From a virus (Duplodnaviria; Heunggongvirae; Uroviricota; Caudoviricetes): a stretch of DNA of 41,556 bases. Position numbers and translations under genes: made by a program. The stretch lies in the IMG/VR virus record IMGVR_UViG_2802429245_000005; one strand, 5' to 3'. Positions 1,825-41,556 of the stretch are shown piece by piece. How positions within the stretch are numbered: the first letter of the stretch is position 1; each line of letters begins with the position of its first letter. The notes beneath the pieces were generated by a model that saw nothing but the letters and a program-made list of their open reading frames with translations, made no database searches and was not told the DNA's origin.

Positions 1825-2450
1825 AACGCCAGCACCTTACTGGCAGTGATGTATCGCGCGCGCCGGTCATCAATGCCGTTCCGGCCACCATTGATAAGCA
1901 GAGTTACACGTGCAATATCTCCGGTATACTTCATGCAGCCTTTGCTGGAGAAGAACCACGCCGCGCTACGAGCCGCGTATTCGTCCTGCGCAAGCAGTTC
2001 AGGACTCTCCAGCAGGTCAACCTTAAGACCGTTTCCACAGTCACGATAGTTATTCAAACCGGTAATCTGGATAAGTCCGCGCCCACGGTAGTTCCAGCCA
2101 TCGCCAGGAGCATTGTTACCCATGCGTTTGCTGTACACCAGATTGGCAATCGCTCTCTGGCGCTCAGGTGGCAATGGTGGTTCGCCTGCGCGTCGCCCCA
2201 ATGCGTTGGCCTGTCCCTGAGTGAGACGCCCAGCCCGAACAAAGTTAGCCAGTCCGCTGACGCTGTAGTTGAAATTTTCCTGCAACCGGGTGAAACCTCC
2301 AGACTCATGCCCGACCTGAGCAATAAACATTGCCTGATCTTCTGGTTTGCTGATACCAAACTCTTTCATCGCAGAAGTTATATGCGAGAACCAGCGTGCG
2401 GCCAGCGCCTCGCTAATACCAGCAGCTCGCTGGAATTGTTTAATCTCCAT
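1821..2450 (-). CDS. Endolysin, glycoside hydrolase family 19 (chitinase-like) lysozyme
   Basis: Internal ATG at 2448-2450 gives [12 protein letters not shown]... with [18 protein letters not shown] and NY motifs typical of GH19 phage endolysins. The longer ORF to 2615 has an atypical N-terminal extension. Confidence 0.75.
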
Positions 2451-2643
2451 GTTTAGACCTCGATACTTTAAAAATTTGAACGACGTTACCGCGCGTTTTA
2501 ATAACCGCAGCGAGCATGACAGCGTTGATAATGACCTCAGATAAATCCACAGCCATTGGCGTGCGGAACCAGATTGCATAGGCAACACGAACCGGAATAC
2601 TGGCCGCAGCAACAATCAGGAAATAAGCAAGCCACCCCCCCAT
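2440..2643 (-). CDS. Small two-TM membrane protein, candidate class II holin or antiholin
   Basis: 67 aa with two hydrophobic helices and a charged C-terminus (KVSRSKHGD). Overlaps the endolysin start by 11 nt. RBS is weak. Confidence 0.4.
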
Positions 2644-2733
2644 CTTCGATGTTGAGATCCGTTACGCCGGAATGTGACAACACGAATTGCTATGCCAGTA
2701 CAAATAACTGCATTGGTGATAAGCAAAAAAAAC

Positions 2734-3138
2734 TCATGCGTTACCATCGTCTTTTCTCCCCGGAATTAACTCGCGTGGATTATCGGAACGGTGGTAGAGC
2801 CATATACCAATACGCACAGCAACAATTGCTGACACGAATGCGCCAGCAGAGAAAACAATCCCTTTTTCAAAAGAGTCCTGCGTGATAGTAGGGATCAGGC
2901 TGGCTATGCCGATAAGAATTGATGCTGCTGGTTTATAAAAAAGAAGGCCGCAGAGAAAGCTAAGCATCGACAAGAGTACACGACGACGAATGGGATACTC
3001 TACCGCAGAGGTAACAAAAATTACCGCTCCAGCCAAAGCCCCCAAAGCAACCTCAGGAGGAACTCCTGCTATCACCGCCGCCAGAGAACTCATGCTAAGC
3101 CACTGATTTAAAGTTTCACTGGTTAGTTGAGCTGACAT
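2734..3138 (-). CDS. Multi-TM membrane protein, putative holin
   Basis: ATG at 3136-3138 preceded by GGTGG. About 134 aa with 3-4 predicted hydrophobic helices, immediately upstream of the endolysin. Confidence 0.5.
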   Translation of the reverse strand: MSAQLTSETLNQWLSMSSLAAVIAGVPPEVALGALAGAVIFVTSAVEYPIRRRVLLSMLSFLCGLLFYKPAASILIGIASLIPTITQDSFEKGIVFSAGAFVSAIVAVRIGIWLYHRSDNPRELIPGRKDDGNA

Positions 3139-3358
3139 GTTTTCCACCGTTTATATGCATAACTACCTCCTGAACAGTAAAGCATTATGCATGATAAACC
3201 ATTTATGGTTTTTTGTTACTTCAACATCGTCAATCCCCTGTTTTCATGCCGATAATAAGGCTCACCTTTTACATAACACTGAAGAAACAACAGTACAGAA
3301 ATGATTCAAACTATGGAGATCGGGTTGAATACCGCGCCATCAAATGGCGCGGTAGCGA

Positions 3359-3655
3359 TCAAATAGAGAAATAAATACAAAAACAAAAAATGACAGGAAC
3401 AGCAAAATCCAACAGACTTCCCACATCCCACACGCGTGGGTCAAAACCTCCCCACCATGGCATGTTGATACGTTTCCCTTTCCCAAACTTTTCTATCCAG
3501 CGATATTCTGCCTGGGTGTGTTCACGCGCAATGAAGAACGTACAACCGGCTATCGCACCGTAAGCCCAGTTTCCTGTTATTATTCCGAAGAAACATTGCA
3601 CAATTATTGATGCAATAGCATGGACAAAAGGAGAATAGTCAATATTATTCATCAT
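3359..3655 (-). CDS. Small integral membrane protein of unknown function
   Basis: ATG ATG at 3650-3655 preceded by GAAGGTG. About 98 aa, hydrophobic (IASIIVQCFFGIITG..., FAVPVIFCFCIYFSI). Followed by a 10-bp perfect-stem hairpin at 3331-3354. Confidence 0.45.
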   Translation of the reverse strand: MMNNIDYSPFVHAIASIIVQCFFGIITGNWAYGAIAGCTFFIAREHTQAEYRWIEKFGKGKRINMPWWGGFDPRVWDVGSLLDFAVPVIFCFCIYFSI

Positions 3656-3684
3656 AACACCTTCATGAATAAACCATATTCTGC

Positions 3685-6426
3685 TTACACAGCACAAATC
3701 CTGATCGTTGCTGTGATATCAGTTTCAGTGCCATTATTGAGATATAACCTACCGCCTACAATTGACATCCCAATTTTGGTAGAAACTTCTTCATCTGCAG
3801 ATGTCACCACCACGTTTGTTTTATTGTAATTACCAAGCGGAGATTCATCAGTCGAATGCCCTGGCCTCAATATCATTCCTACACCTGCAAAGAAATTAGG
3901 GTTCCCATTATTTATAACATCCACACAATAAGATAATGCGCTTTTACTAAGTGGGATGGATTGACTTGTATGTGCCTTAACCCACATTTCCCATACGTAT
4001 TCACTTTTACGTATCGCCCCCTCACATGAACCAGATGCATGGAATAACTTTCCTGATGATACAGTGTTATTGGTGCCAACAAGAATCATCTGATTTCCAC
4101 CACCAAAGCCAAAGTTATCACCAAGAGATGGTCCACCATTAATCCTTAACATATATGCATCAGTACTGCCTGATGAGGCGTCAGAGTTATCTATATATAC
4201 AGTGCAATCACTTATAAGAACGCCATCAATCTTATCTGGCGCAACAGTATTAGTTTGGACAACGACGAACTCTCTGGTGGTAGATTTTGCCGAACAACCT
4301 TTAATAATTGTTGGTGTTTCAAGAGTATATGTTTGAGTAATAAAAATGAAATTACTAGGACGAAGCTTCCGATTAACAGCATTTGTTGCTTTCCACCATT
4401 TATTGCTTGATTCGGTTGTTTCGCTAAAGCCATCAATATAGTGAGTATCGGTAATAGTAATTCCGCTACCATAATACAAACGAATCGGAAGGTTGCTAAA
4501 TCCTCTAATCTCGCAACCAGATACTATCTCATTAAAACCACGTATAGTTGCGCCATAAAAACAGTCAACTGCCACATTGTCTTTATATTTAGACTCTGCG
4601 GCACCACCATGACTACCAAACCCATAGGAAAATTCAGTCCATCCTTCCGATGGAAATATAATCCCACCAGTATAACCAGTTCCGCCACCACGCATTGTAA
4701 TGTTGGTTACATTATTGTAGAGAGAACTCCAGTTACTCCCTCCAATATCAACACCACGCCTACAACAAGATGCATTGATATTGTCCACAGTGCAGTAACT
4801 GCTATTGGAAACAGAAACAGCATTACCTGTACCACCATCACCATTGAAAACTCTATTGATTCCATACAGAGATGTATCACGAACAGTGCATCTTAAGCAG
4901 CCTAACAAGGTAATCCCAGCATTCGGGAAATTTTCCACACTAGCGAAACTGGCAATACCGTTTACGCAATATTCGAAGACAACCCCATCATAAGCTTTTT
5001 GTCCGCTAGTTGCATTGGTAACTAACCCGTGTATCGTCCCAACATGAAAATCTCCAGAAATATTAAATGTAGCAGGATAGACAGCCCAGGCCTCAGCTTG
5101 CCTAACCAAACGAAATGTATCTCCTGCAGCAGGTTTATTTGGGAATCCAGTGTCAGCATTACTACCAATAGTAAATGTTTTTGTGTCATCATCATATGCT
5201 GTAACCATTTTGGTTATACCAGCATTATCTCCCGTTAATCCAAGAATTTTATAGAGTGCATCACGAGGTGGTGATGTCACTGAGAAATTTGTAGATGTAA
5301 ATGATTGCCCACTAGATGCGCCAGTAACTGTAACTGTAATATTCCCTCCTGAACGGTAGTAATAATATGCATCCTGATCTAATGTCACATTATTTCCACT
5401 AAGTGAAACGACTTCAACAATTTGCCCTTCCTGCCAACTTCCTCGGTTATCTCCACGAACAAGGTGGTTATTACGAATAACAAGCAAATCTCCGACAGAA
5501 ATATCAGACACATCATCAAGAGTCACAGTCTTTTCGCCCAATGATATATCTCTCGTTATGAAATTATGCAATTTAGTACTTGCAATTCCACCAAGCTTTA
5601 TTGCTGAACCTTCATATCCTACAACATTATTTGTGCAGAGCAATTCAACCTTTCCTGATGCCACCCAATCGAAGCAACCATATGGAATGGAAATATCTAT
5701 TTGTGAAAACAGGTACTTTCCTGCTGTCCATTCCAAACGCTTTCCGTTAGATGCGCAGTAAATGATGGCATTTGTTATTGCGTCTGTATCGTCAGTAATG
5801 CCATCCCCTTTTGCACCAAAATCGCGAACATTGACGATATCCCGCATCTTATCCTGGAACGTTCTGTATACTGCTCCAGAACCATACTGAATAAACAAAC
5901 CAAAACCACCAACAACTCCGGCGATTGCAGCATCGACATAATTACGCATTGAGCGATTATTTACAGCATCCTGCTCAAGTGATGGATCTGCAAGGTTAGA
6001 AATTCTGTTTTGTTTTGCATCGTAATATTTTGCAAGCAGAGAGGGCTTCATCAATGCACGTCTGAACCACCCAAAACATTGCTGGATCAGCATCGTCAGA
6101 TAGTCAAAGGCATCCTCATGCACTTCGGGGAAAAATTTTCCCTGATTGCGAAGGTCTGTCTCCTGCACTACATCAAGCACACGATCTATCGTAATTCGCC
6201 ATCCAGCAGCAAGCGGAGACGGAAGAACCACAGAACCGCCACTATAAGTGCCCGCCCCAGTTACCGTATAACCGGTATCCAGAACCAATTCTGTTACGTT
6301 CCCGTTCAGGTCAGACACCTGAACAACCAGGTCTGATTTTCTGAAAATTCGAAAAGTATACGGAAACGATGTCGTAACGCCGTTACCTGTGTATTCGTTG
6401 TGGTCAACTTCGGTTGAGACCGTCAT
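3685..6426 (-). CDS. Tailspike with N-terminal virion-attachment domain and pectate-lyase-like beta-helix receptor-binding/depolymerase domain
   Basis: 913 aa. RBS GGAG 9 nt upstream of ATG (6424-6426). VRDFGAKGDGITDDTDAI motif typical of right-handed beta-helix glycanases. Downstream two-thirds is AT-rich by eye. Confidence 0.85.
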   Translation of the reverse strand: MTVSTEVDHNEYTGNGVTTSFPYTFRIFRKSDLVVQVSDLNGNVTELVLDTGYTVTGAGTYSGGSVVLPSPLAAGWRITIDRVLDVVQETDLRNQGKFFPEVHEDAFDYLTMLIQQCFGWFRRALMKPSLLAKYYDAKQNRISNLADPSLEQDAVNNRSMRNYVDAAIAGVVGGFGLFIQYGSGAVYRTFQDKMRDIVNVRDFGAKGDGITDDTDAITNAIIYCASNGKRLEWTAGKYLFSQIDISIPYGCFDWVASGKVELLCTNNVVGYEGSAIKLGGIASTKLHNFITRDISLGEKTVTLDDVSDISVGDLLVIRNNHLVRGDNRGSWQEGQIVEVVSLSGNNVTLDQDAYYYYRSGGNITVTVTGASSGQSFTSTNFSVTSPPRDALYKILGLTGDNAGITKMVTAYDDDTKTFTIGSNADTGFPNKPAAGDTFRLVRQAEAWAVYPATFNISGDFHVGTIHGLVTNATSGQKAYDGVVFEYCVNGIASFASVENFPNAGITLLGCLRCTVRDTSLYGINRVFNGDGGTGNAVSVSNSSYCTVDNINASCCRRGVDIGGSNWSSLYNNVTNITMRGGGTGYTGGIIFPSEGWTEFSYGFGSHGGAAESKYKDNVAVDCFYGATIRGFNEIVSGCEIRGFSNLPIRLYYGSGITITDTHYIDGFSETTESSNKWWKATNAVNRKLRPSNFIFITQTYTLETPTIIKGCSAKSTTREFVVVQTNTVAPDKIDGVLISDCTVYIDNSDASSGSTDAYMLRINGGPSLGDNFGFGGGNQMILVGTNNTVSSGKLFHASGSCEGAIRKSEYVWEMWVKAHTSQSIPLSKSALSYCVDVINNGNPNFFAGVGMILRPGHSTDESPLGNYNKTNVVVTSADEEVSTKIGMSIVGGRLYLNNGTETDITATIRICAV

Positions 6427-6886: not shown

Positions 6887-6902
6887 GGCCGCAAGAGCGG
6901 CC
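6887..6902. terminator. Hairpin between convergent genes 6622-6879 and 6902-7630 (possible bidirectional terminator)
   Basis: GGCCGC-AAGA-GCGGCC with T-rich flanks on both strands. Confidence 0.4.
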
Positions 6903-7630
6903 TATCGTTTCGCTTTGTGCTCGTCCCAGCACGTTTTGCACCATGCCATTAAGCCGTCCGCATTTTGATTATTAGGGTAAAAGCTGGTTCGTTTTCTGCG
7001 GACATTACAAATTGGGCACCACTTCATATGACGTGTATTCTTTGGGCCATCGAGACACCTTGCACACCACTTAGTCAATCCATCTGGATTTTTTGACGAT
7101 TTCCTGAATTTTTCATATGGAAGGTTTATTCTGCATCGCAAGCACTGCTTGCTACCGCTTGAAACTCTGTTAGCTGATTCTTCTTTTGGCGGCGATACAG
7201 AAGATATTCTTGCTGGCTCTGATACTGCCTGAGGTGCTTTTTTAAATGACTGAGACGATATGTCATCACCAGGGAATCTTCCATGATATGCCGGACGCGT
7301 TGACACTCCAGGTGGAAGCTCAGCTGTAAACGGCTTTGGCTGAATCAGTTGCCTCTCTTTTGCTAACTCCTGCTGTTTATAATATGTCTGGATTACCGCA
7401 CTATCATAAGCAGGAGGTGCGGAAATATTAGGCGCATTACCTCCAGTTTTTTGAAACTGAGTAGAGGTGTGTTCTATCACCTGTGTACGATTAATCGTTA
7501 TCTCCCCATCTTCGGTCTTTATCGTTTTGTTATGATTAACGACCGTACGATCAGAGATCTTAGTCTTGTTCTGGTTGATAACGTAAATAATCACCGTAAC
7601 CACACCAACAACTATCCAGAAAACTTCCAT
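6902..7630 (-). CDS. Membrane-anchored protein with two tandem CxxC...WCxxC zinc-ribbon-like repeats
   Basis: RBS GAGGAAAAG before ATG (7628-7630). N-terminal TM helix, Pro/Ser-rich linker, repeats CLRCR...DGLTKWCARC and CPICN...DGLMAWCKTC. Operator motif at 7651-7665. Confidence 0.6.
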   Translation of the reverse strand: MEVFWIVVGVVTVIIYVINQNKTKISDRTVVNHNKTIKTEDGEITINRTQVIEHTSTQFQKTGGNAPNISAPPAYDSAVIQTYYKQQELAKERQLIQPKPFTAELPPGVSTRPAYHGRFPGDDISSQSFKKAPQAVSEPARISSVSPPKEESANRVSSGSKQCLRCRINLPYEKFRKSSKNPDGLTKWCARCLDGPKNTRHMKWCPICNVRRKRTSFYPNNQNADGLMAWCKTCWDEHKAKR

Positions 7631-7792: not shown

Positions 7793-7816
7793 GGGCACTG
7801 GCAAAATCCAGTGCCG
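7793..7816 (+). other. Perfect 8-bp stem-loop (GGCACTGG / CCAGTGCC) in the antirepressor leader
   Basis: Read directly; lies between the operator at 7744 and the terminator at 7851. Confidence 0.5.
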
Positions 7817-7850
7817 GGATTGGCGTCCCGGATTACTAAAAGGCGCATTC

Positions 7851-7870
7851 ACCGCGCAAGCGGTTTTTTT
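7851..7870 (+). terminator. Intrinsic terminator-like hairpin plus T7 tract in the antirepressor leader
   Basis: ACCGC-GCAA-GCGGT followed by TTTTTTT. Confidence 0.5.
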
Positions 7871-8027
7871 ATGCGTATAGCACGGCCACATTCGTATTAT
7901 GGTGGGCTGTGTGGGGGCACCGAAAGGTGCGCCGGGTCCTTTTAGCCGGTTACGCCAACCCTGCACAGTTCACCACCAACCGATTGGCGTCGGTAGTGGT
8001 GATTAACCAGACTAAAAGGTAACCACT

Positions 8028-8723
8028 ATGACAGCTACAAAAAGCACGTCCATTTTTTCTTTCGAATCCCAAGCCGATATACGGGTAATCGTCATTAATG
8101 GTGAGCCATGGTTTATCGCTTCAGATGTTTGTCGGGCTATAGGCATAGCAAACCATCGAGATGCTGTTCGAAAACTTGATGATGATGAGAAGGGCGTCGC
8201 TTCAACCGACACCCCTGGCGGTGAGCAAGAATCGATCATTATCTCCGAGTCAGGCCTCTACACACTGATCCTCCGCTGCCGCGATGCGGTGACACCAGGC
8301 ACTATCCCCTACCGCTTTCGTAAATGGGTTACAGGTGAGGTTCTTCCTCAGATCCGCCGCACCGGAAGTTACATTAAAAACTCGCTCCCGCAGGAAGAAC
8401 GCATAAAGATGGTTGCCGACCAGGTTGCCAACGCCACGGCGTCAGCAGTAATGCAGGCGATGAAGATAGAGAACAAAACCTACAGCGCCCCGCTGAAGCC
8501 AGGATACCGCAGTCTGATTCACTCGCCGTCTGGTGTTCTCGGCCTGACGGAGAACTCACTGCTGATGAATCTGCTGAACCAGTTACAGGAAGACGGGCAT
8601 GATGTATCGGGCGCGGCGGCGGAGCTGACCACCATGTTCTGCTACATCGTCGGTGTGAGTAAATGCCTGCGTGATATCCAGACGCATGCGGAGTACATCA
8701 ACGACAAGGCTGGGTTCTTCTGA
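8028..8723 (+). CDS. Antirepressor, BRO-N (Ant-type) N-terminal domain plus C-terminal domain
   Basis: N-terminus FSFESQADIRVIVINGEPWFIASDVCRAIGIANHRDAVRKLDDDEKG matches the Bro-N fold signature. RBS AAGG before ATG at 8028. Confidence 0.8.
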   Translation: MTATKSTSIFSFESQADIRVIVINGEPWFIASDVCRAIGIANHRDAVRKLDDDEKGVASTDTPGGEQESIIISESGLYTLILRCRDAVTPGTIPYRFRKWVTGEVLPQIRRTGSYIKNSLPQEERIKMVADQVANATASAVMQAMKIENKTYSAPLKPGYRSLIHSPSGVLGLTENSLLMNLLNQLQEDGHDVSGAAAELTTMFCYIVGVSKCLRDIQTHAEYINDKAGFF

Positions 8724-26822: not shown

Positions 26823-26899
26823 GTGGCATTAGCTCAGCTGGACAGAGCAACCGCCTTCTAAGCGGTTGGTCGCAGGTTCGAATCCTGCATGCCACGCCA
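26823..26899 (+). tRNA. tRNA-Arg, anticodon UCU (reads AGA), phage-encoded
   Basis: Cloverleaf read directly: acceptor GTGGCAT/ATGCCAC, D-arm GCTC-AGCTGGACA-GAGC, anticodon stem ACCGC/GCGGT with loop CTTCTAA, T-arm GCAGG-TTCGAAT-CCTGC, discriminator G and encoded CCA. Confidence 0.85.
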
Positions 26900-35812: not shown

Positions 35813-36397
35813 ATGAAAAGTATCCAGGACGTCCGCAGGCAAAATCTCAACGACTTGATCGACCGTGAATTCAATGGTGTTCAGACGCGGATGGCAGAAA
35901 AACTTGGAACTCAGGCAAATCTGGTAAACCGCTGGGCTCTTGGCAAGAAGGTTATCGGCGACCAGGTTGCGCGAAAAATTGAAGCTGCCGCCAATAAACC
36001 CCGTAACTGGCTTGATATCGATCGCTCGCTTTCTCAGGAAGGTTTTCAGCCTGTCGGCCCAAGCGACATTGGTCAGCTGGCGGCTCACAACCTGGAACGC
36101 TGGATGAGCGAAAGCCGCGACCTTTCAACACAGGGAAAACTTCACCGCGCATCCGGCGTCGCCCAGGTAACAATCAGCCGCCTGTTAAACAATGAGGTCA
36201 GCGTTTCCATTTCCACCCTGGAGAATGTTGCATCCGCATTCGGGCGTCACGGCTATGAATTACTGATTCACCCGCACGACCCTGCGACCATCAACTATGA
36301 CCGCTCGCGCTACGCATTGTTACCCGAAACCGAGAAAGCAAAGATCGAAAGTTACATTGAATTTGTCATCAACCAGAACGAAAAAAATAAACAATAA
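35813..36397 (+). CDS. Repressor-like protein with two XRE-type HTH domains (candidate lysogeny repressor)
   Basis: 194 aa with two HTH-like segments and no S24 peptidase domain. Monocistronic: strong terminator at 36418-36444. Operator motifs cluster between it and the cro-like gene. Confidence 0.7.
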   Translation: MKSIQDVRRQNLNDLIDREFNGVQTRMAEKLGTQANLVNRWALGKKVIGDQVARKIEAAANKPRNWLDIDRSLSQEGFQPVGPSDIGQLAAHNLERWMSESRDLSTQGKLHRASGVAQVTISRLLNNEVSVSISTLENVASAFGRHGYELLIHPHDPATINYDRSRYALLPETEKAKIESYIEFVINQNEKNKQ

Positions 36398-36417: not shown

Positions 36418-36444
36418 AAGCCGCCTCATGGCGGCTTTTTTATT
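36418..36444 (+). terminator. Rho-independent terminator after the repressor-like gene
   Basis: AAGCCGCC-TCAT-GGCGGCTT followed by TTTTATT. Confidence 0.75.
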
Positions 36445-36488: not shown

Positions 36489-36516
36489 TTGACATCAAAC
36501 CAAATACGCATAATCA
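36489..36516 (+). promoter_or_regulatory. Sigma70-like promoter candidate for the recombination operon
   Basis: TTGACA at 36489-36494 and -10-like CATAAT (36509-36514) or TAATCA (36511-36516). Spacer length is non-optimal, so assignment is tentative. Confidence 0.4.
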
Positions 36517-36531
36517 TTACCCCAACGGTAA
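36517..36531. promoter_or_regulatory. Palindromic operator-like site TTACCCCAACGGTAA
   Basis: Exact motif immediately downstream of -10-like CATAAT/TAATCA (36509-36516); paired with the site at 36455. Confidence 0.6.
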
Positions 36532-36705: not shown

Positions 36706-37005
36706 ATGAACGTTAATCAGCAGAAAAATCTTCAAAAAATCATGCTGGCATTCGACAAGGACTACCGCCTGTCAGAACAGCTATATGACCGACAAGTTGA
36801 ACTGATTGAGAGCATCCGACTTCATCAACTGTCCTCAACTTTCGACGTTGTAACAGGCAAAGGCGTTCGTCAGGAAGTACTGGAGGCTGCTAAAGACAGC
36901 CCTGAGTTCGAAGAACTGATGGATGCCTACCGGCGCGAGGCAATGGCAATTATCGCCCGCTGGGATCTGGCGGATCAGCTTGATGGACAGAGGGACGCGG
37001 CATGA
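36706..37005 (+). CDS. Small protein of the recombination operon
   Basis: GGGAGGG 7 nt before ATG at 36706 (track start 36691). Stop overlaps the exonuclease start. Confidence 0.5.
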   Translation: MNVNQQKNLQKIMLAFDKDYRLSEQLYDRQVELIESIRLHQLSSTFDVVTGKGVRQEVLEAAKDSPEFEELMDAYRREAMAIIARWDLADQLDGQRDAA

Positions 37006-37823
37006 AAGCGGGAATTTATTTCGACATCAGCAACGAAGACTACCACGCCGGTGACGGCGTGAGTAAATCGCAACTGGACATGGTTGCCAAGAATCCGGCG
37101 CTTCTTAAATGGGTTCAGGCAGCACCAGAAGACGAAGAGAAAAAGTCTGCACTGGATATGGGAACCGCATTGCACTGTCTGCTTCTGGAGCCTGGAGAGT
37201 TCGACAAACGCTTCATTGTTTCACCGAAATTCGAACGTCGGACGAAACAAGGTAAAGCTGACGAAGAGGCATTTCTTCGTGATGTGGCGGATATGGGGAT
37301 TACGGTACTTGATGCCGAGCAGTGGCGGAAACTGGAGCTGATGCGTGATAGCGCAATGGCTCACCCGGCGGCACGCTGGATGCTGGAAGCACCTGGTTAC
37401 TGCGAAGCATCAATGTACTGGAACGATGAAGATACTGGTGAGTTGTGCCGCATTCGTCCAGACAAATGGCTGAACGAGCACAACGTGATCGTCGACGTGA
37501 AAAAGGTTGCAGATATGGACCGTTTTGCACGCCACATCGAGGAATTCCGCTACCACGTGCAGGACGCAATGTACCGCGAAGGCGCAATGAGGGTTACTGG
37601 TCAGCCGCATGGTTTTTTCTTTCTTGCCGTGAGCGAAAGCATTGATTGTGGTCGATATCCGGTACGCGTGTTCGAGCTGGATGCGCCGGATGTCGATGCC
37701 GGGCACGCTCTGTTCCGCCGGGATCTGAATACCTATCACGAATGCCGCATCAACGATGAGTGGGGCGGAGTGGAAATTATTAAACGCCCTGACTGGGCAC
37801 GCAAACAGGATATGTACATATGA
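37002..37823 (+). CDS. PD-(D/E)xK recombination exonuclease (YqaJ/lambda-Exo-like)
   Basis: Acidic/Lys catalytic-type motifs (IVDVKK, D...E.K). Directly upstream of, and overlapping, the RecT-like gene. Confidence 0.7.
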   Translation: MKAGIYFDISNEDYHAGDGVSKSQLDMVAKNPALLKWVQAAPEDEEKKSALDMGTALHCLLLEPGEFDKRFIVSPKFERRTKQGKADEEAFLRDVADMGITVLDAEQWRKLELMRDSAMAHPAARWMLEAPGYCEASMYWNDEDTGELCRIRPDKWLNEHNVIVDVKKVADMDRFARHIEEFRYHVQDAMYREGAMRVTGQPHGFFFLAVSESIDCGRYPVRVFELDAPDVDAGHALFRRDLNTYHECRINDEWGGVEIIKRPDWARKQDMYI

Positions 37824-38761
37824 GCAACGACATCGCAAACATCAATGCACCAGTAGACACAGCAATCGCTGGAACTGCTGCAACTATTTTCAGCCCAGAC
37901 GGCTTGAACCAACTGATGAAATTCGCCGAGGTAATGGCGCAAAGCCGCGTAACGGTACCGGCGCACCTCGCCGGGAAACCAGCTGATTGCATGGCCGTGG
38001 CAATGCAGGCTGCGCAGTGGGGAATGAACCCGTTTGCCGTGGCTCAGAAAACCCATGTTGTGAACGGCACGCTAGGTTATGAAGCCCAATTAGTAAACGC
38101 AGTTATCTCAACGATGTCGCCAACAAAAGATCGCATCAACTACGAGTGGTTCGGGCCGTGGGAACGCGTGATCGGTAAGTTTGTTGAGAAAACATCCAAA
38201 AACGGCAATCCATATATCGCACCAGGCTGGACTCTAAAAGACGAAGAAGGCTGCGGTGTTCGCGTATGGGCAACCATGAAGGGCGAGGATCAACCTCGAG
38301 TGCTTGAGTTAATGCTGTCTCAAGCACAGGTAAGAAACTCCACACTTTGGGCCAGTGATCCGAAACAACAACTCGCATACCTTGCGACAAAACGCTGGTC
38401 TCGCTTGCACTGTCCTGACGTAATCATGGGCGTCTACACACCAGACGAATTACAGGAAACGGCACCGCGCGTTGAGCGAGACATTACTCCGCAAACGACC
38501 ACTGCTGCGGGAATGAACAGTCTGATCAACGCTAAACAAGTGAAAAAGCCTGATGAGCAAACGCGTAAAGCGGATAGCCGTGATCCAGAAGAAATGCTGA
38601 TGGCCTTTACCAGCGCAGCGATGAATTACAGCACTGTCTCCGAACTGGATAAAGCTTACAAATACATTGCACAAAAACTTTCAGATGATGACGAACTGCT
38701 GGCAAAAGCCACCGACGTTTACAGCGTTCGTCGGGAAGAATTAAACGAAACATCTATGTAA
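37820..38761 (+). CDS. recT: RecT-family single-strand annealing protein
   Basis: 313 aa. ATG overlaps the exonuclease stop. Conserved RecT-like core (AQWGMNPFA...TLGYEAQLVNAV). Confidence 0.8.
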   Translation: MSNDIANINAPVDTAIAGTAATIFSPDGLNQLMKFAEVMAQSRVTVPAHLAGKPADCMAVAMQAAQWGMNPFAVAQKTHVVNGTLGYEAQLVNAVISTMSPTKDRINYEWFGPWERVIGKFVEKTSKNGNPYIAPGWTLKDEEGCGVRVWATMKGEDQPRVLELMLSQAQVRNSTLWASDPKQQLAYLATKRWSRLHCPDVIMGVYTPDELQETAPRVERDITPQTTTAAGMNSLINAKQVKKPDEQTRKADSRDPEEMLMAFTSAAMNYSTVSELDKAYKYIAQKLSDDDELLAKATDVYSVRREELNETSM

Positions 38762-38810
38762 CCACCACCGCGGCGCCACGCGCGCCGCACTGCAACCAAG
38801 AGAGGTATTT

Positions 38811-39059
38811 ATGAAAGGTGCATTAGGTAAGAAGGAACTCCTGGCGGTGGTGCCACTGTCATGGAGCACTATCGACCGCATGGAGCGCGCAGGGGAATTT
38901 CCTAAACGCTGGTATATCACTGACAAACGCTGCGCATGGAACCGTGATGAAGTTGAGCGTTGGCTTGATGAACGTCAGGCAGCAAGCCCGGCAGAGTTCC
39001 AGGGTAAAAAGCCTCCTGTTCAGCAACGTGTATATCGTCCTGTGAGCAACGCTGCATGA
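38811..39059 (+). CDS. AlpA-family DNA-binding protein / excisionase-like
   Basis: AGAGAGG RBS. Winged-HTH signature LLAVVPLSWSTIDRMERAGEFPKRWYITDKRCAWNRDEVERWL typical of AlpA/Xis. Confidence 0.7.
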   Translation: MKGALGKKELLAVVPLSWSTIDRMERAGEFPKRWYITDKRCAWNRDEVERWLDERQAASPAEFQGKKPPVQQRVYRPVSNAA

Positions 39060-39172
39060 GTGTGCTGCTAAGGCACTGGAGCAAATGGTCAGGATGGTAC
39101 TTATTCCTGGCCTCTGTTTCAGCATGGCTTTATCTGCTGGCATTAATTTTCAGAGAGGGTTGGATTAAGTGA
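39056..39172 (+). CDS. Unannotated 38-aa single-TM peptide ORF
   Basis: ATG overlaps the AlpA-like stop (ATGA) and its TGA overlaps the GTG of the next gene. Peptide MSVLLRHWSKWSGWYLFLASVSAWLYLLALIFREGWIK. Confidence 0.3.
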   Translation: MSVLLRHWSKWSGWYLFLASVSAWLYLLALIFREGWIK

Positions 39173-39468
39173 AAAAGTTAAGCCGACTTGAAAAATATCA
39201 CATGAACAAGGTTTCAATGCGCAGTCCGTCAAAGATTGTCGCCGTTACTCCTGCGGCGATAGAGATCGAAAAACGCGCGATTGAAAGAGAGAAAAAAGGG
39301 CAGTTCCGCATTGCCGCTCACCTTTGGCTTCAGTGTATGGATGTTGCTTCTGGTGATGTTGAGCGTGCGAGGATCGCGGTTCGCAGGGACCAATGTATCA
39401 CAAAAGGTAACGGCCTTCGCCGTGGCGACTATAGCGGCATAGGATGTTGTGGGGTGGTTTATGACTAA
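39169..39468 (+). CDS. Small regulator-like protein (ANR-like) preceding the methyltransferase
   Basis: GTG start with AGAGAGGG upstream. 99 aa. Family assignment from recalled motif AHLWLQCMDVA only. Confidence 0.5.
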   Translation: MKKLSRLEKYHMNKVSMRSPSKIVAVTPAAIEIEKRAIEREKKGQFRIAAHLWLQCMDVASGDVERARIAVRRDQCITKGNGLRRGDYSGIGCCGVVYD

Positions 39469-40111
39469 GAAATACACACTAATCTATGCAGATCCACCCT
39501 GGGTATACCGGGACAAAGCCGCAGATGGTAATCGCGGTGCCGGTTTTAAATATCCGGTTATGAGTGTGCTGGACATCTGCCGCCTTCCTGTGTGGGATTT
39601 GGCCGATGAAAACTGTCTGTTGGCCATGTGGTGGGTGCCAACACAACCACTCGAAGCACTAAAAGTTGTTGAAGCCTGGGGATTCCGTCTGATGACCATG
39701 AAGGGATTCACGTGGATAAAATGTGGTAGTCGACAACCAGATAAACTGGTTATGGGTATGGGACACATGACTCGCGCCAATAGTGAAGATTGCCTGTTTG
39801 CGGTAAAGGGAAAACTACCTCCGCGCATTAATGCAGGTATCGTTCAGTCATTTACCGCACCGCGGCTTGAGCATTCAAGAAAACCAGATATTGTTCGTGA
39901 AAAACTTGTGCAATTGTTAGGCGATGTTTCTCGCATTGAACTGTTCGCCCGCCAGACGTCTCATGGCTTCGATGTTTGGGGTAATCAGTGCGAAGACCCG
40001 GCAGTGCAACTACACCCTGGATACGCGTTGGATATTGCCGGATTAACAAATGCATTCAGCAATGCTCCGCTGTCACCAACAGACAACCAGGGGCGGGAGC
40101 GTGCAGCATGA
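39461..40111 (+). CDS. MT-A70-family N6-adenine DNA methyltransferase
   Basis: Catalytic DPPW motif in MTKKYTLIYADPPWVY. About 216 aa. Start taken at ATG 39461; the track starts at GTG 39449. Confidence 0.75.
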   Translation: MTKKYTLIYADPPWVYRDKAADGNRGAGFKYPVMSVLDICRLPVWDLADENCLLAMWWVPTQPLEALKVVEAWGFRLMTMKGFTWIKCGSRQPDKLVMGMGHMTRANSEDCLFAVKGKLPPRINAGIVQSFTAPRLEHSRKPDIVREKLVQLLGDVSRIELFARQTSHGFDVWGNQCEDPAVQLHPGYALDIAGLTNAFSNAPLSPTDNQGRERAA

Positions 40112-40302
40112 ACAGGGCATCACCAGCAGATTTAAGGAAATGCCTTGAAACTGCAAACATGCTTGCACACAGCGGGATCAGGTTTGTTCCAATTCCCGCT
40201 GTCACTGATGCTGAATTTGCAACGCTGTCAGCAATATTCGCAGACAAAATTGAATCACTGGCAGCAGAAGCCGAGATGGAAGAAAATCAGCAGAACTATT
40301 AA
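40108..40302 (+). CDS. Small protein downstream of the methyltransferase
   Basis: ATG overlaps the methyltransferase stop (ATGA at 40108-40111). 64 aa. Ends 4 nt before the convergent integrase stop. Confidence 0.45.
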   Translation: MNRASPADLRKCLETANMLAHSGIRFVPIPAVTDAEFATLSAIFADKIESLAAEAEMEENQQNY

Positions 40303-40305
40303 ACG

Positions 40306-41556
40306 TTATTCTCCCGCCATCCACTTCTCAAACTTCGACGGGGAGAACGGAATCAAATCCGTATGCTCCCCGTTAATCCAGGAATCAATCATATCGGCCC
40401 ACTGCTGCAACATGTAGGCGCGCTGTCTGGCGTATTCCGCTTTGTTATATACGGCGCGCACACTTTTCTGCTCATGTGCCAGGGCCTTTTCAATCCAGTC
40501 TGAAGGATAACCAGCCTCATGCAACAACGTACTGGCTGTACGGCGCATATCGTGTACGGTGAAGTCCTGAATATGCTCACCATCTTCATTTATTATTTTC
40601 ACCGTTCTGTCGATCAGAGAGTTCAGCGCGGCATTAGATAATGGCTTCCGGAAGTTGTAACGACCAGGAACCAGATATTCACTTCCACCAGCGCACATCT
40701 GCAACCCGACCAATATATCCTGTGCCTGTTTAGGCAGGTAAATAACGTGCGCCCGGCTTCCCTTCATGCGGTCTGAAGGAATTGTCCATGTCCATTTTTT
40801 AAAATCTATTTCATCCCACGTTGCATTGGTGAATTCGCCTTTACGAACCATGGTGATAAGCACCAGCTTTAAAGCCATTTTCATAGTGCCCATAGCACCA
40901 ATGGCATCCAGCGTGCGGAAGAACAGGCCAACTTCTTCTGGTGTCAGTGTTCGCTCTCGTGGTTTAAATATGGCGATAGACGAAGGTTTAATGTCAGCCG
41001 CAGGATTAAACAAACCATGACCACGGTCATTGGCGTGACGGTATACGCTGCTGATGATCTCCCTGGCCTGCACTGCTGTTGCCCGGCCACCGCGTTCGAC
41101 AATCCGGTCACACAAATCACGAACCATCGATGTGGTAATTTCAGCCATCATTTTGTTGCCAAGAACCGGAAGTATGTCACGGTCGATCACTGCCTTCTTC
41201 ATTGCGCGGGTACTTTCAGCAAGGATGACGTGTTTCATATAACTGTCGGTATGTACCGTAAACGTCTCGGCACCACGAATCTTTTTGATACCGTCACGTT
41301 TAGCCGCAGCCGGTGACTGGCCTGCTTTAAGCAGCTTTTTTGCAGCAATCAGTTCTTCCCGCGCTTCTGCCAGGCTGATACCGTCACGCCCATACTGCCC
41401 GATTACCAGTGTTTCGCGGCGACCGTTGATACGGTAGTCATAGCGAAATGAGACCGTACCTGACGTAAGCACAGCTACATACAGCCCGTCACGATCGGAG
41501 ACTTTGTACAGTTTGTCCTGCGGCTTGAGGTTTTTTAATTTTGTATCGGTAAGCAC
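40306..41556 (-). CDS. int: Tyrosine integrase (P4-like family); 5' end at or beyond the window edge
   Basis: N-terminus (M)LTDTKLKNLKPQDKLYKVSDRDGLYVAV matches the P4-type integrase N-terminal domain. C-terminal catalytic region with HDMRRT and Y. ORF runs to the last base; the first codon in the window is GTG. Confidence 0.85.
   Translation of the reverse strand: MLTDTKLKNLKPQDKLYKVSDRDGLYVAVLTSGTVSFRYDYRINGRRETLVIGQYGRDGISLAEAREELIAAKKLLKAGQSPAAAKRDGIKKIRGAETFTVHTDSYMKHVILAESTRAMKKAVIDRDILPVLGNKMMAEITTSMVRDLCDRIVERGGRATAVQAREIISSVYRHANDRGHGLFNPAADIKPSSIAIFKPRERTLTPEEVGLFFRTLDAIGAMGTMKMALKLVLITMVRKGEFTNATWDEIDFKKWTWTIPSDRMKGSRAHVIYLPKQAQDILVGLQMCAGGSEYLVPGRYNFRKPLSNAALNSLIDRTVKIINEDGEHIQDFTVHDMRRTASTLLHEAGYPSDWIEKALAHEQKSVRAVYNKAEYARQRAYMLQQWADMIDSWINGEHTDLIPFSPSKFEKWMAGE

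Follow-up and report, generated by a model that had tools for sequence, protein, structure and literature searches.

We analysed a 41,556-nucleotide stretch of viral DNA (IMG/VR record IMGVR_UViG_2802429245_000005, Caudoviricetes; hereafter, at its full length, the window), concentrating on three overlapping genes at 39169-40302 that encode a PerC-domain protein, an MT-A70 adenine methyltransferase and a DUF1382 protein. Each has a described counterpart. That of the methyltransferase is M.EcoPA8orf6770P, an enzyme of a Shiga toxin (Stx) 2a phage studied by Gong, Chakraborty and Koudelka (Nucleic Acids Research 2023; PMC10810198). By itself, this enzyme was almost inactive in vitro on both DNA and RNA; PNB-2, a 143-aa winged helix-turn-helix (wHTH) protein encoded directly upstream and co-transcribed with it, co-purifies with the enzyme in a 1:1 ratio, and the complex prefers 16S rRNA, the modified base not having been mapped (PMC10810198). 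An APPA active-site mutant of the Stx-phage gene failed to restore a virulence phenotype that the wild type restores (PMC10810198). The highly similar M.EcoGV is cited in the same paper as having methylated GATC in vivo when overexpressed alone, and Table 3 of another lists it as a GATC enzyme (PMC6602927). The PerC domain (PF06069) is shared with PerC of enteropathogenic Escherichia coli (EPEC) and Pch of enterohaemorrhagic E. coli (EHEC), small prophage-encoded activators of the locus of enterocyte effacement (PMC4764244, PMC6265319); the Pch proteins work at host promoters with no methylase known to be involved (PMC4764244). The DUF1382 counterpart is Orf63 of lambda, a helical protein encoded in the exo-xis region that forms dimers and favours lytic development; it did not bind DNA when assayed for this, and a cleft in it accommodates a helix (PMC10869804).

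We give an even chance to the reading that the three genes supply a DNA adenine methyltransferase, orphan and expressed early, together with a linked regulator of PerC type and a separate Orf63-like protein. The trio itself is already known. Phage phiV10 (NC_007804, genus Uetakevirus) carries these three genes in the same order as PhiV10p34-p33-p32, adjoining the same integrase, with essentially no difference from the window except that the RefSeq start of its PerC gene lies 11 codons too late; its annotation reads AlpA-family regulator, membrane protein, transcriptional activator (PerC family), DNA methyltransferase, DUF1382 protein and integrase. Across 38700-40400 the window is 98% identical in DNA to phiV10 and a dozen similar podophages, and over its first 25 kb it is 96–97% identical to the same phages, so that by sequence it is assigned to the phiV10/epsilon15-type (Uetakevirus-type) temperate phages. 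Of 5426 complete E. coli genomes, 539 (about 10%) contain the interval 39169-40302 at ≥95% nucleotide identity, and there the Prokaryotic Genome Annotation Pipeline labels run 'PerC family transcriptional regulator', 'MT-A70 family methyltransferase' and 'DUF1382 family protein'. Full-length homologues of the trio genes at 60–85% identity occur in many Enterobacterales, confirming that the genes are real. The gene string and its neighbours are laid out as follows.

38811..39059, + strand: AlpA/excisionase-like small helix-turn-helix (HTH) protein, 82 aa (Pfam Phage_AlpA, E 3e-5)
39056..39172, + strand: backbone gene for a 38-aa membrane protein (phrog_17484, E 5e-27; annotated in phiV10 and epsilon15)
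39169 (GTG)..39468, + strand: PerC-family open reading frame (ORF), 99 aa (Pfam PerC, E 6e-7, 30.1 bits)
39461 (ATG)..40111, + strand: MT-A70 methyltransferase ORF, 216 aa (Pfam MT-A70, E 6.5e-22)
40108..40302, + strand: DUF1382 ORF, 64 aa (Pfam DUF1382, E 1.3e-30)
40306..41556, - strand: P4-type tyrosine integrase, 416 aa (Pfam Phage_integrase, Arm-DNA-bind_3 and Phage_int_M)

The AlpA-like gene belongs to the backbone of this phage type and is an excisionase or regulator in the epsilon15 and phiV10 annotation. The GTG start of the PerC gene overlaps the stop of the 38-aa gene by 4 nt (GTGA), the methyltransferase start, preceded by a Shine-Dalgarno-like GGGGTGG run, overlaps the PerC stop by 8 nt (ATGACTAA), and the DUF1382 start overlaps the methyltransferase stop by 4 nt (ATGA). 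The integrase gene is convergent with this string, its stop codon 3 nt from that of DUF1382. A preliminary description of this DNA had noted three translationally coupled genes next to the integrase, in which a DPPW-motif methyltransferase is flanked by 99-aa regulator-like and 64-aa proteins, and no restriction endonuclease beside them. Coordinates and lengths read from the sequence agree, as do the overlaps of start and stop codons, the regulator-like protein being of PerC type. The neighbours (AlpA, 38-aa membrane protein, PerC, DUF1382, integrase) are all identified as families other than nucleases; the cognate endonuclease that a Type II restriction-modification (R-M) system would place beside its methyltransferase is absent. 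The term 'module' used there holds as adjacency of the three genes but fails as a fixed three-gene unit, the flanking genes being swapped or inserted in relatives.

Sequence features of the central gene are those of an intact enzyme. The MT-A70 profile (PF05063) is matched in full (positions 1-172 of 172; 78.7 bits against a cut-off of 23.9), and the PADLOC model MTase_II ('Type II methyltransferase') and phrog_359 match at 7e-77 and 3e-120, respectively. The DPPW motif occupies residues 11-14 (nt 39491-39502), and this motif IV lies N-terminal to the cofactor-binding motifs, the permuted order of beta-class enzymes; EDCLFAVKG, SRKPD and IELFAR align with the matching motifs of ciliate MTA1 and METTL3, which are also its relatives by sequence match to PDB chains (E 6e-13 and 6e-6, respectively). 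The ATG at 39461 is backed by homologues that begin 3–4 residues ahead of KYTLIYADPPW, and 63 alignment columns, including DPPW and the cofactor-binding motifs, are invariant across homologues at 60–85% identity. More than 2500 relatives at E ≤ 1e-10 were found in the protein collection, mostly stand-alone proteins of 190–216 aa from Enterobacterales. The AlphaFold2 model reached a predicted local distance difference test (pLDDT) score of 55, which we attribute to a shallow alignment of 18 close sequences; because of this low score, family placement rests on the matches to PDB chains and not on a fold search. These features identify a predicted complete, stand-alone beta-class (MT-A70) N6-adenine methyltransferase dependent on S-adenosylmethionine, and the full-length match with conserved motifs answers to the DPPW enzyme that had been surmised, with an entire catalytic domain.

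The methyltransferase gene is a mosaic. Its internal variable loop (KCGSRQPDKLVMG) is of the Stx2a-phage type, an alternative allele, KTNKHKGNSAI-G, occurs in epsilon15, SPN1S, Tyrion and Klebsiella prophages, and the last ~30 residues form a Tyrion-type tail. The two sharply distinct loop alleles (residues 84-100, nt 39710-39760) shuffle independently of both phage backbone and C-terminal tail, and the loop may be a specificity-determining segment. We considered whether tail or loop type tracks the gene upstream; homologue comparison revealed no such correspondence. Members of the same clade stand alone in other settings: in lambdoid prophages they lie between ninB and ninD, and in another phage type they follow the lysis genes. 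They therefore appear able to work without a fixed partner; on this sequence evidence we regard the enzyme as a mobile orphan.

The 99-aa protein matches PerC at 30.1 bits against a cut-off of 22.6, over profile positions 5-50 of 90, and phrog_868, 'transcriptional activator', matches it end to end (1-99 of 99). Its first 11 residues are kept in 20 homologues down to 59% identity, with Y10 and H11 nearly invariant, whereas the internal methionine used as start in the RefSeq annotation of phiV10 (88 aa) is not conserved among them. Judged by this conservation, the true start is the GTG overlapping the upstream stop, and 39169-39201 is coding; together with the full phrog_868 coverage, this favours the 99-aa length of the preliminary description over the 88 aa of RefSeq. 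AlphaFold2 predicts five helices and no strands (pLDDT 75), and a Foldseek search against PDB returned nothing better than E about 1, with MIT/TPR-like helical hairpins on top. The model thus depicts a helical protein and not a winged HTH like PNB-2. Relative to EPEC PerC and EHEC Pch, it shares the Pfam domain and small size but matches the profile in part and belongs to a subgroup encoded upstream of adenine methyltransferases. The gene is present in all Uetakevirus-type phages and absent from Stx phages; given this generality, and the inserts that occur between the two genes, we first read it as a backbone gene that merely abuts the methyltransferase.

To place the pair in a wider context, we surveyed 80 loci, one genome per species, carrying methyltransferase relatives at 41–87% identity, and ran a PerC-domain hidden Markov model on all six frames over 3 kb to each side of the methyltransferase. 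The domain was detected in 22 of the 80; in every case it was encoded upstream in the same orientation as the methyltransferase, directly abutting it in 10, and no copy lay elsewhere in the 3 kb to each side. When ORFs that end at the methyltransferase start were clustered, PerC-domain proteins made up the largest group, and at least 7 of them are fusions of an N-terminal wHTH-like domain to a C-terminal PerC domain. The fusion loci are not Uetakevirus-like: their order (CII, replication protein, wHTH-PerC, MT-A70, LexA-like/RusA/antirepressor, DUF968) is that of a lambdoid early-right region. Single-protein queries with two such fusions were then used to collect viral contigs, yielding 46 that carry the fusion; the methyltransferase abuts it in 37, lies 772 nt downstream in 3 and is lacking in 6 (40 of 46 carry it). 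Genes that can be inserted between PerC and methyltransferase in relatives encode DUF1317, DndB/DGQHR-like and wHTH proteins. In some relatives from E. coli, Salmonella and Citrobacter, the DndB/DGQHR-like (ParB-fold) gene, encoding 331–355 aa, separates PerC (or DUF1317) from the methyltransferase and overlaps the start of the latter; a ParB-like ORF at the same position was also seen in loci L147, L162 and L164. The fusions and inserts are listed by locus handle, with coordinates within the locus.

L113, L115, L117, L155, L157, L159 and L167, ending at ~3000: wHTH (MarR/PaaX-like)-PerC fusions (YfdN type), directly upstream of an adenine methylase, MT-A70 or Dam-family
L223, 1801-2289: the same
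L225, 1759-2283: the same
L007, 2434-3501: DndB/DGQHR-like insert
L003, 2509-3504: DndB/DGQHR-like insert
L104, 1937-3004: DndB/DGQHR-like insert

Relatives of the wHTH-PerC fusion protein occur in 53 phage records. In SfV (orf40), mEp460 (gp44) and ST64B (sb43), the next gene in the same slot is a Dam-family (PF05869) methylase, and BLASTP detected no similarity between this type of Dam methylase (SfV Dam) and the window's MT-A70 enzyme, for which the Pfam scan likewise returned MT-A70 as the only match; judged by sequence, the window enzyme may nevertheless work like a Dam without belonging to the Dam sequence family. The ST64B record notes that sb43 and sb44 are similar to E. coli K-12 b2357 (yfdN) and b2356 (yfdM), and the likeness we draw to K-12 depends on these depositors' notes. 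The YfdN-type pairs (SfV orf40-dam, ST64B sb43-sb44, mEp460 gp44-gp45 and yfdN-yfdM of K-12 CPS-53) resemble the window in that the gene immediately ahead of an orphan adenine methylase gene, and overlapping it, encodes a PerC domain. They differ in three respects: YfdN-type proteins have an N-terminal MarR-like wHTH, which the window protein lacks; their partner belongs to Pfam Dam, whereas that of the window is MT-A70; and they follow a replication gene in the early-right operon, whereas the window pair sits beside int.

An upstream PerC-domain gene is thus a recurrent companion of phage adenine methylases, seen in two genomic settings and for two enzyme families, and chance adjacency is an unlikely cause. 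Recurrence with both MT-A70 and Dam-family enzymes points to a link through DNA adenine methylation, and since the two are interchangeable behind wHTH-PerC genes, we suggest that both do the same job. We also entertain, tentatively and with considerably less confidence than the reading of the trio given above, that the PerC-domain family, including the virulence regulators PerC and Pch, arose as dedicated companions of phage orphan adenine methyltransferases; the window protein would then be a variant without the wHTH whose role is to regulate, target or read out the methyltransferase, the pair forming a two-gene unit. We found no published description of the pairing, although the literature search was swamped by words like 'percent' and does not establish its absence. 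Rare assemblies also contain in-frame PerC-methyltransferase fusion ORFs, P0124 (297 aa) and P0122 (263 aa), with 2 or 3 member sequences each; they arose from small deletions in or close to the 8-nt overlap and may be accidents.

The 64-aa protein has a DUF1382 (PF07131) match of 105.7 bits over profile positions 1-60 of 60 and a match to PDB 8DSB, lambda Orf63 (E 6e-13; 30 identities over 61 residues, 49%), which marks it by sequence as an Orf63 homologue. The window gene resembles orf63 in lying between recombination genes and int but differs in adjoining a methyltransferase, which the lambda gene does not; dimer structure and pro-lytic effect are those of lambda Orf63, to which the window copy is likened by sequence. 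In the 80 viral contigs closest to the window, the slot after the methyltransferase holds DUF1382 in 45, a Ser/Thr phosphatase in 18 and coiled-coil or no recognisable proteins in others, and DUF1382 stands ahead of the methyltransferase in 3. A membrane protein or a wHTH protein replaces it in other close relatives, and epsilon15, Tyrion and a Klebsiella phage have different small genes there; the methyltransferase-DUF1382 order is found again in Stx phage ArgO145. The DUF1382 gene is therefore independent, exchangeable cargo, less tied to the methyltransferase than the PerC gene is. Among the Uetakevirus phages, epsilon15, SPN1S and Tyrion have equivalent genes but carry extra ones between PerC and methyltransferase and another gene after the methyltransferase.

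Expression of the trio was considered from the signals at the start of the operon.

35813-36397: HTH repressor gene, upstream of a terminator-like hairpin
36418-36437: terminator-like hairpin, following the repressor gene and preceding a promoter-like site
36489..36517, + strand: sigma-70-like promoter TTGACA-17-AATCAT, 10 of 12 consensus matches, candidate early-left promoter

Epsilon15 has annotated repressor-binding sites (operators) at the equivalent place, and our scan gave no further plus-strand promoter or terminator match before 40302. Downstream of the candidate promoter lie a small gene, an exonuclease gene, RecT, AlpA, the 38-aa membrane protein, PerC, the methyltransferase and the Orf63-like gene. 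This layout suggests that the trio is probably the far end of an early-left operon, controlled by the repressor and expressed on infection or induction; in lysogens it may be silent. Between the convergent stop codons (40300-40308) there is no terminator-like hairpin, and early-left transcription should therefore run antisense through int; annotated RNase III sites surround int in epsilon15. The exonuclease and RecT of the window (37002-38761) are separate ORFs, a PD-(D/E)XK exonuclease (273 aa) and RecT (313 aa) with a 4-nt overlap, whereas phiV10 RefSeq has one 1761-nt RecE-RecT fusion at the corresponding place (2302-4062 of the compared locus).

From gene structure, family membership, synteny and gene-pair statistics we infer a substrate, a time of expression and a nature for the PerC link. 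The methyltransferase would be produced soon after infection or induction, alongside the products of the recombination genes. By analogy with M.EcoGV expressed alone, its substrate would most likely be DNA, and most probably Dam-type GATC sites; methylation of GATC would leave fast-replicating phage DNA fully methylated and shielded from nucleases that cut unmethylated sites. The PerC-type protein would be a regulator working with or through adenine methylation. Because proteins of this type are found with two unrelated enzymes and the one in the window has no nucleic-acid-binding domain, the link would be one of regulation or of action on methylated DNA rather than that of a rigid adaptor. 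The Orf63-like protein would act separately on the lysis-lysogeny balance, as lambda Orf63 pushes towards lysis, and transcription of the operon would run head-on into the integrase gene.

Several observations weigh against this interpretation. As many as 58 of the 80 methyltransferase loci, and the Stx phages entirely, have no PerC domain, so PerC is not obligatory, and some of the co-occurrence reflects a gene order that related phages have inherited. The promoter role of 36489-36517 is read from its consensus match. A purified close relative, as described above, hardly methylated DNA or RNA alone and preferred 16S rRNA with PNB-2 (PMC10810198), the GATC report concerns an overexpressed relative and is known through two citing papers, and a DNA-methylation role for the window enzyme is argued from relatives and gene context. 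The anti-restriction or epigenetic role offered in the preliminary description is accordingly plausible but unproven, an enzyme 83% identical having been reported as a GATC DNA methylase or, with PNB-2, as a 16S rRNA methylase. If the site is GATC, a lysogen methylome without a phage-dependent motif would not argue against activity; it would likely be blank, as host Dam already methylates GATC and the operon may be repressed. Site counts were of no help: the window has 146 GATC sites (observed/expected 0.73), a mild under-representation similar to that of other palindromes, and we discarded them as a specificity clue in either direction.

The alternative that survives best, which we hold to be somewhat unlikely, is that three unrelated neighbours happen to share a cargo-rich region by the attachment site, with PerC an independent anti-H-NS-type factor like Pch, the methyltransferase acting alone and the overlaps reflecting tight packing. 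Nearly every gene of the operon overlaps its neighbour, functionally unrelated pairs included; the genes flanking the methyltransferase are swapped freely, most loci of its clade lack PerC, and Pch needs no known methylase at host promoters (PMC4764244). The restriction of PerC to the upstream, same-strand position in 22 of 80 loci, across at least two phage contexts and two methyltransferase families, is nevertheless hard to obtain by chance.

A second alternative, which we consider unlikely, takes the enzyme for an RNA methyltransferase that, like M.EcoPA8orf6770P-PNB-2, methylates host 16S rRNA and so tunes translation and prophage induction, with PerC as targeting subunit in the place of PNB-2. 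Residues 1-187 of the methyltransferase are 83% identical to the enzyme of Stx phage ArgO145, and we let that enzyme stand for M.EcoPA8orf6770P because the ArgO145 locus contains the exact gp7/gp6 terminator sequence quoted for phage PA8, as well as the DPPW primer site with one mismatch. Both the Stx2a-phage and the window enzyme are orphans with the variable loop KCGxRQxDKLVMG, and in both loci a DUF1382 gene follows the methyltransferase with an integrase nearby. Besides this identity to a catalytic subunit that is nearly inactive until its co-transcribed upstream partner confers the 16S rRNA preference (PMC10810198), the idea draws on the upstream, overlapping position that PerC shares with PNB-2, on the two-part layout (wHTH plus C-terminal tail) common to PNB-2 and the wHTH-PerC fusions, and on the rare fusion ORFs P0124 and P0122. 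Yet the Stx phages have PNB-2 directly upstream and no PerC domain, whereas the window has PerC and no PNB-2 homologue (tblastn against the whole window, E > 1); the same search with the DndB/DGQHR-like, DUF1317 and small wHTH genes known upstream of the methyltransferase in other phages also gave E > 1. The ~27 C-terminal residues of the type found in Stx-producing E. coli, linked by the authors to PNB-2 binding (PMC10810198), do not align with residues 188-216 of the window enzyme, the last ~29 residues differing between the two enzymes. No nucleic-acid-binding wHTH is predicted in the PerC-type protein of the window, the position modified in the rRNA was left unmapped (PMC10810198), and wHTH-PerC genes also precede Dam-family DNA methylases, a better fit to a DNA role. 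We also tried PNB-2 as a diverged wHTH-PerC protein and rejected it: BLASTP found no similarity and hhalign aligned 20 columns at 3.5% probability, the likeness being a short C-terminal motif (RQxCIxKAxRRRRLIxxGL versus RRDQCITKGNGLRRGDYSGI). The activities reported for M.EcoGV and M.EcoPA8orf6770P are those enzymes' own, the window enzyme being likened to them by sequence.

That the methyltransferase gene is an inactive relic is very improbable. The near inactivity of the purified relative alone (PMC10810198) and the low pLDDT of the window model would suit a relic, but the latter reflects the shallow alignment; the ORF is intact in the 539 E. coli genomes, the 63 invariant columns include the catalytic and cofactor-binding motifs, and the APPA mutant of the Stx-phage gene lost its effect on virulence (PMC10810198). 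Least credible of all, and close to negligible, is a modification half of an R-M or other defence system with its nuclease elsewhere in the phage: the PADLOC best match is to a 'Type II methyltransferase' model and bacterial MT-A70 relatives include M.MunI-type R-M methylases (PMC4738411), but scans with Pfam, PADLOC and PHROGs found no nuclease or defence protein among the neighbours, all identified as something else, or the other non-structural ORFs scanned (the structural-gene block was judged by its 96% identity to the annotated phiV10 structural genes), and the same gene stands without a nuclease in hundreds of prophages and nin regions.

The window terminates exactly at the integrase start codon and looks like a whole prophage or phage record; in both related prophages examined, the element adjoins guaA. 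The first ~1.2 kb has no phiV10 coverage. A 242-aa ORF (phrog_6762; 6902-7630, - strand) has a zinc-ribbon-like C-terminal part weakly matching PHROGs endonuclease VII and 'Lar-like restriction alleviation protein', and on these matches the cargo region could contain, in this ORF, a second gene related to anti-restriction. Other features of the window are as follows.

1-1074: glycine-zipper/TraT-like lipoprotein (cut by the window start) and DUF5384 protein, cargo-like genes at the prophage end
7795-7980: isrK small RNA (77.9 bits) and C4 antisense RNA (77.7 bits), Rfam matches
8028-8723: BRO-N antirepressor-like gene, directly downstream of the isrK/C4 RNA matches
26823-26899, + strand: tRNA-Arg (anticodon tct), flanked by - strand structural genes

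The RNA matches and the BRO-N gene together have the sequence features of a P1/P7-type c4-ant immunity module inside a podophage.

As first described, the trio adds nothing new and is ordinary overall. Its enzyme provides a natural comparison, without PNB-2 and either partner-less or differently partnered, for the only studied enzyme of the clade, whose substrate is disputed between GATC DNA and 16S rRNA. The pairing of PerC-domain proteins with phage adenine methyltransferases, if true, would offer an approach to how the PerC/Pch virulence regulators work, a mechanism that is poorly understood.

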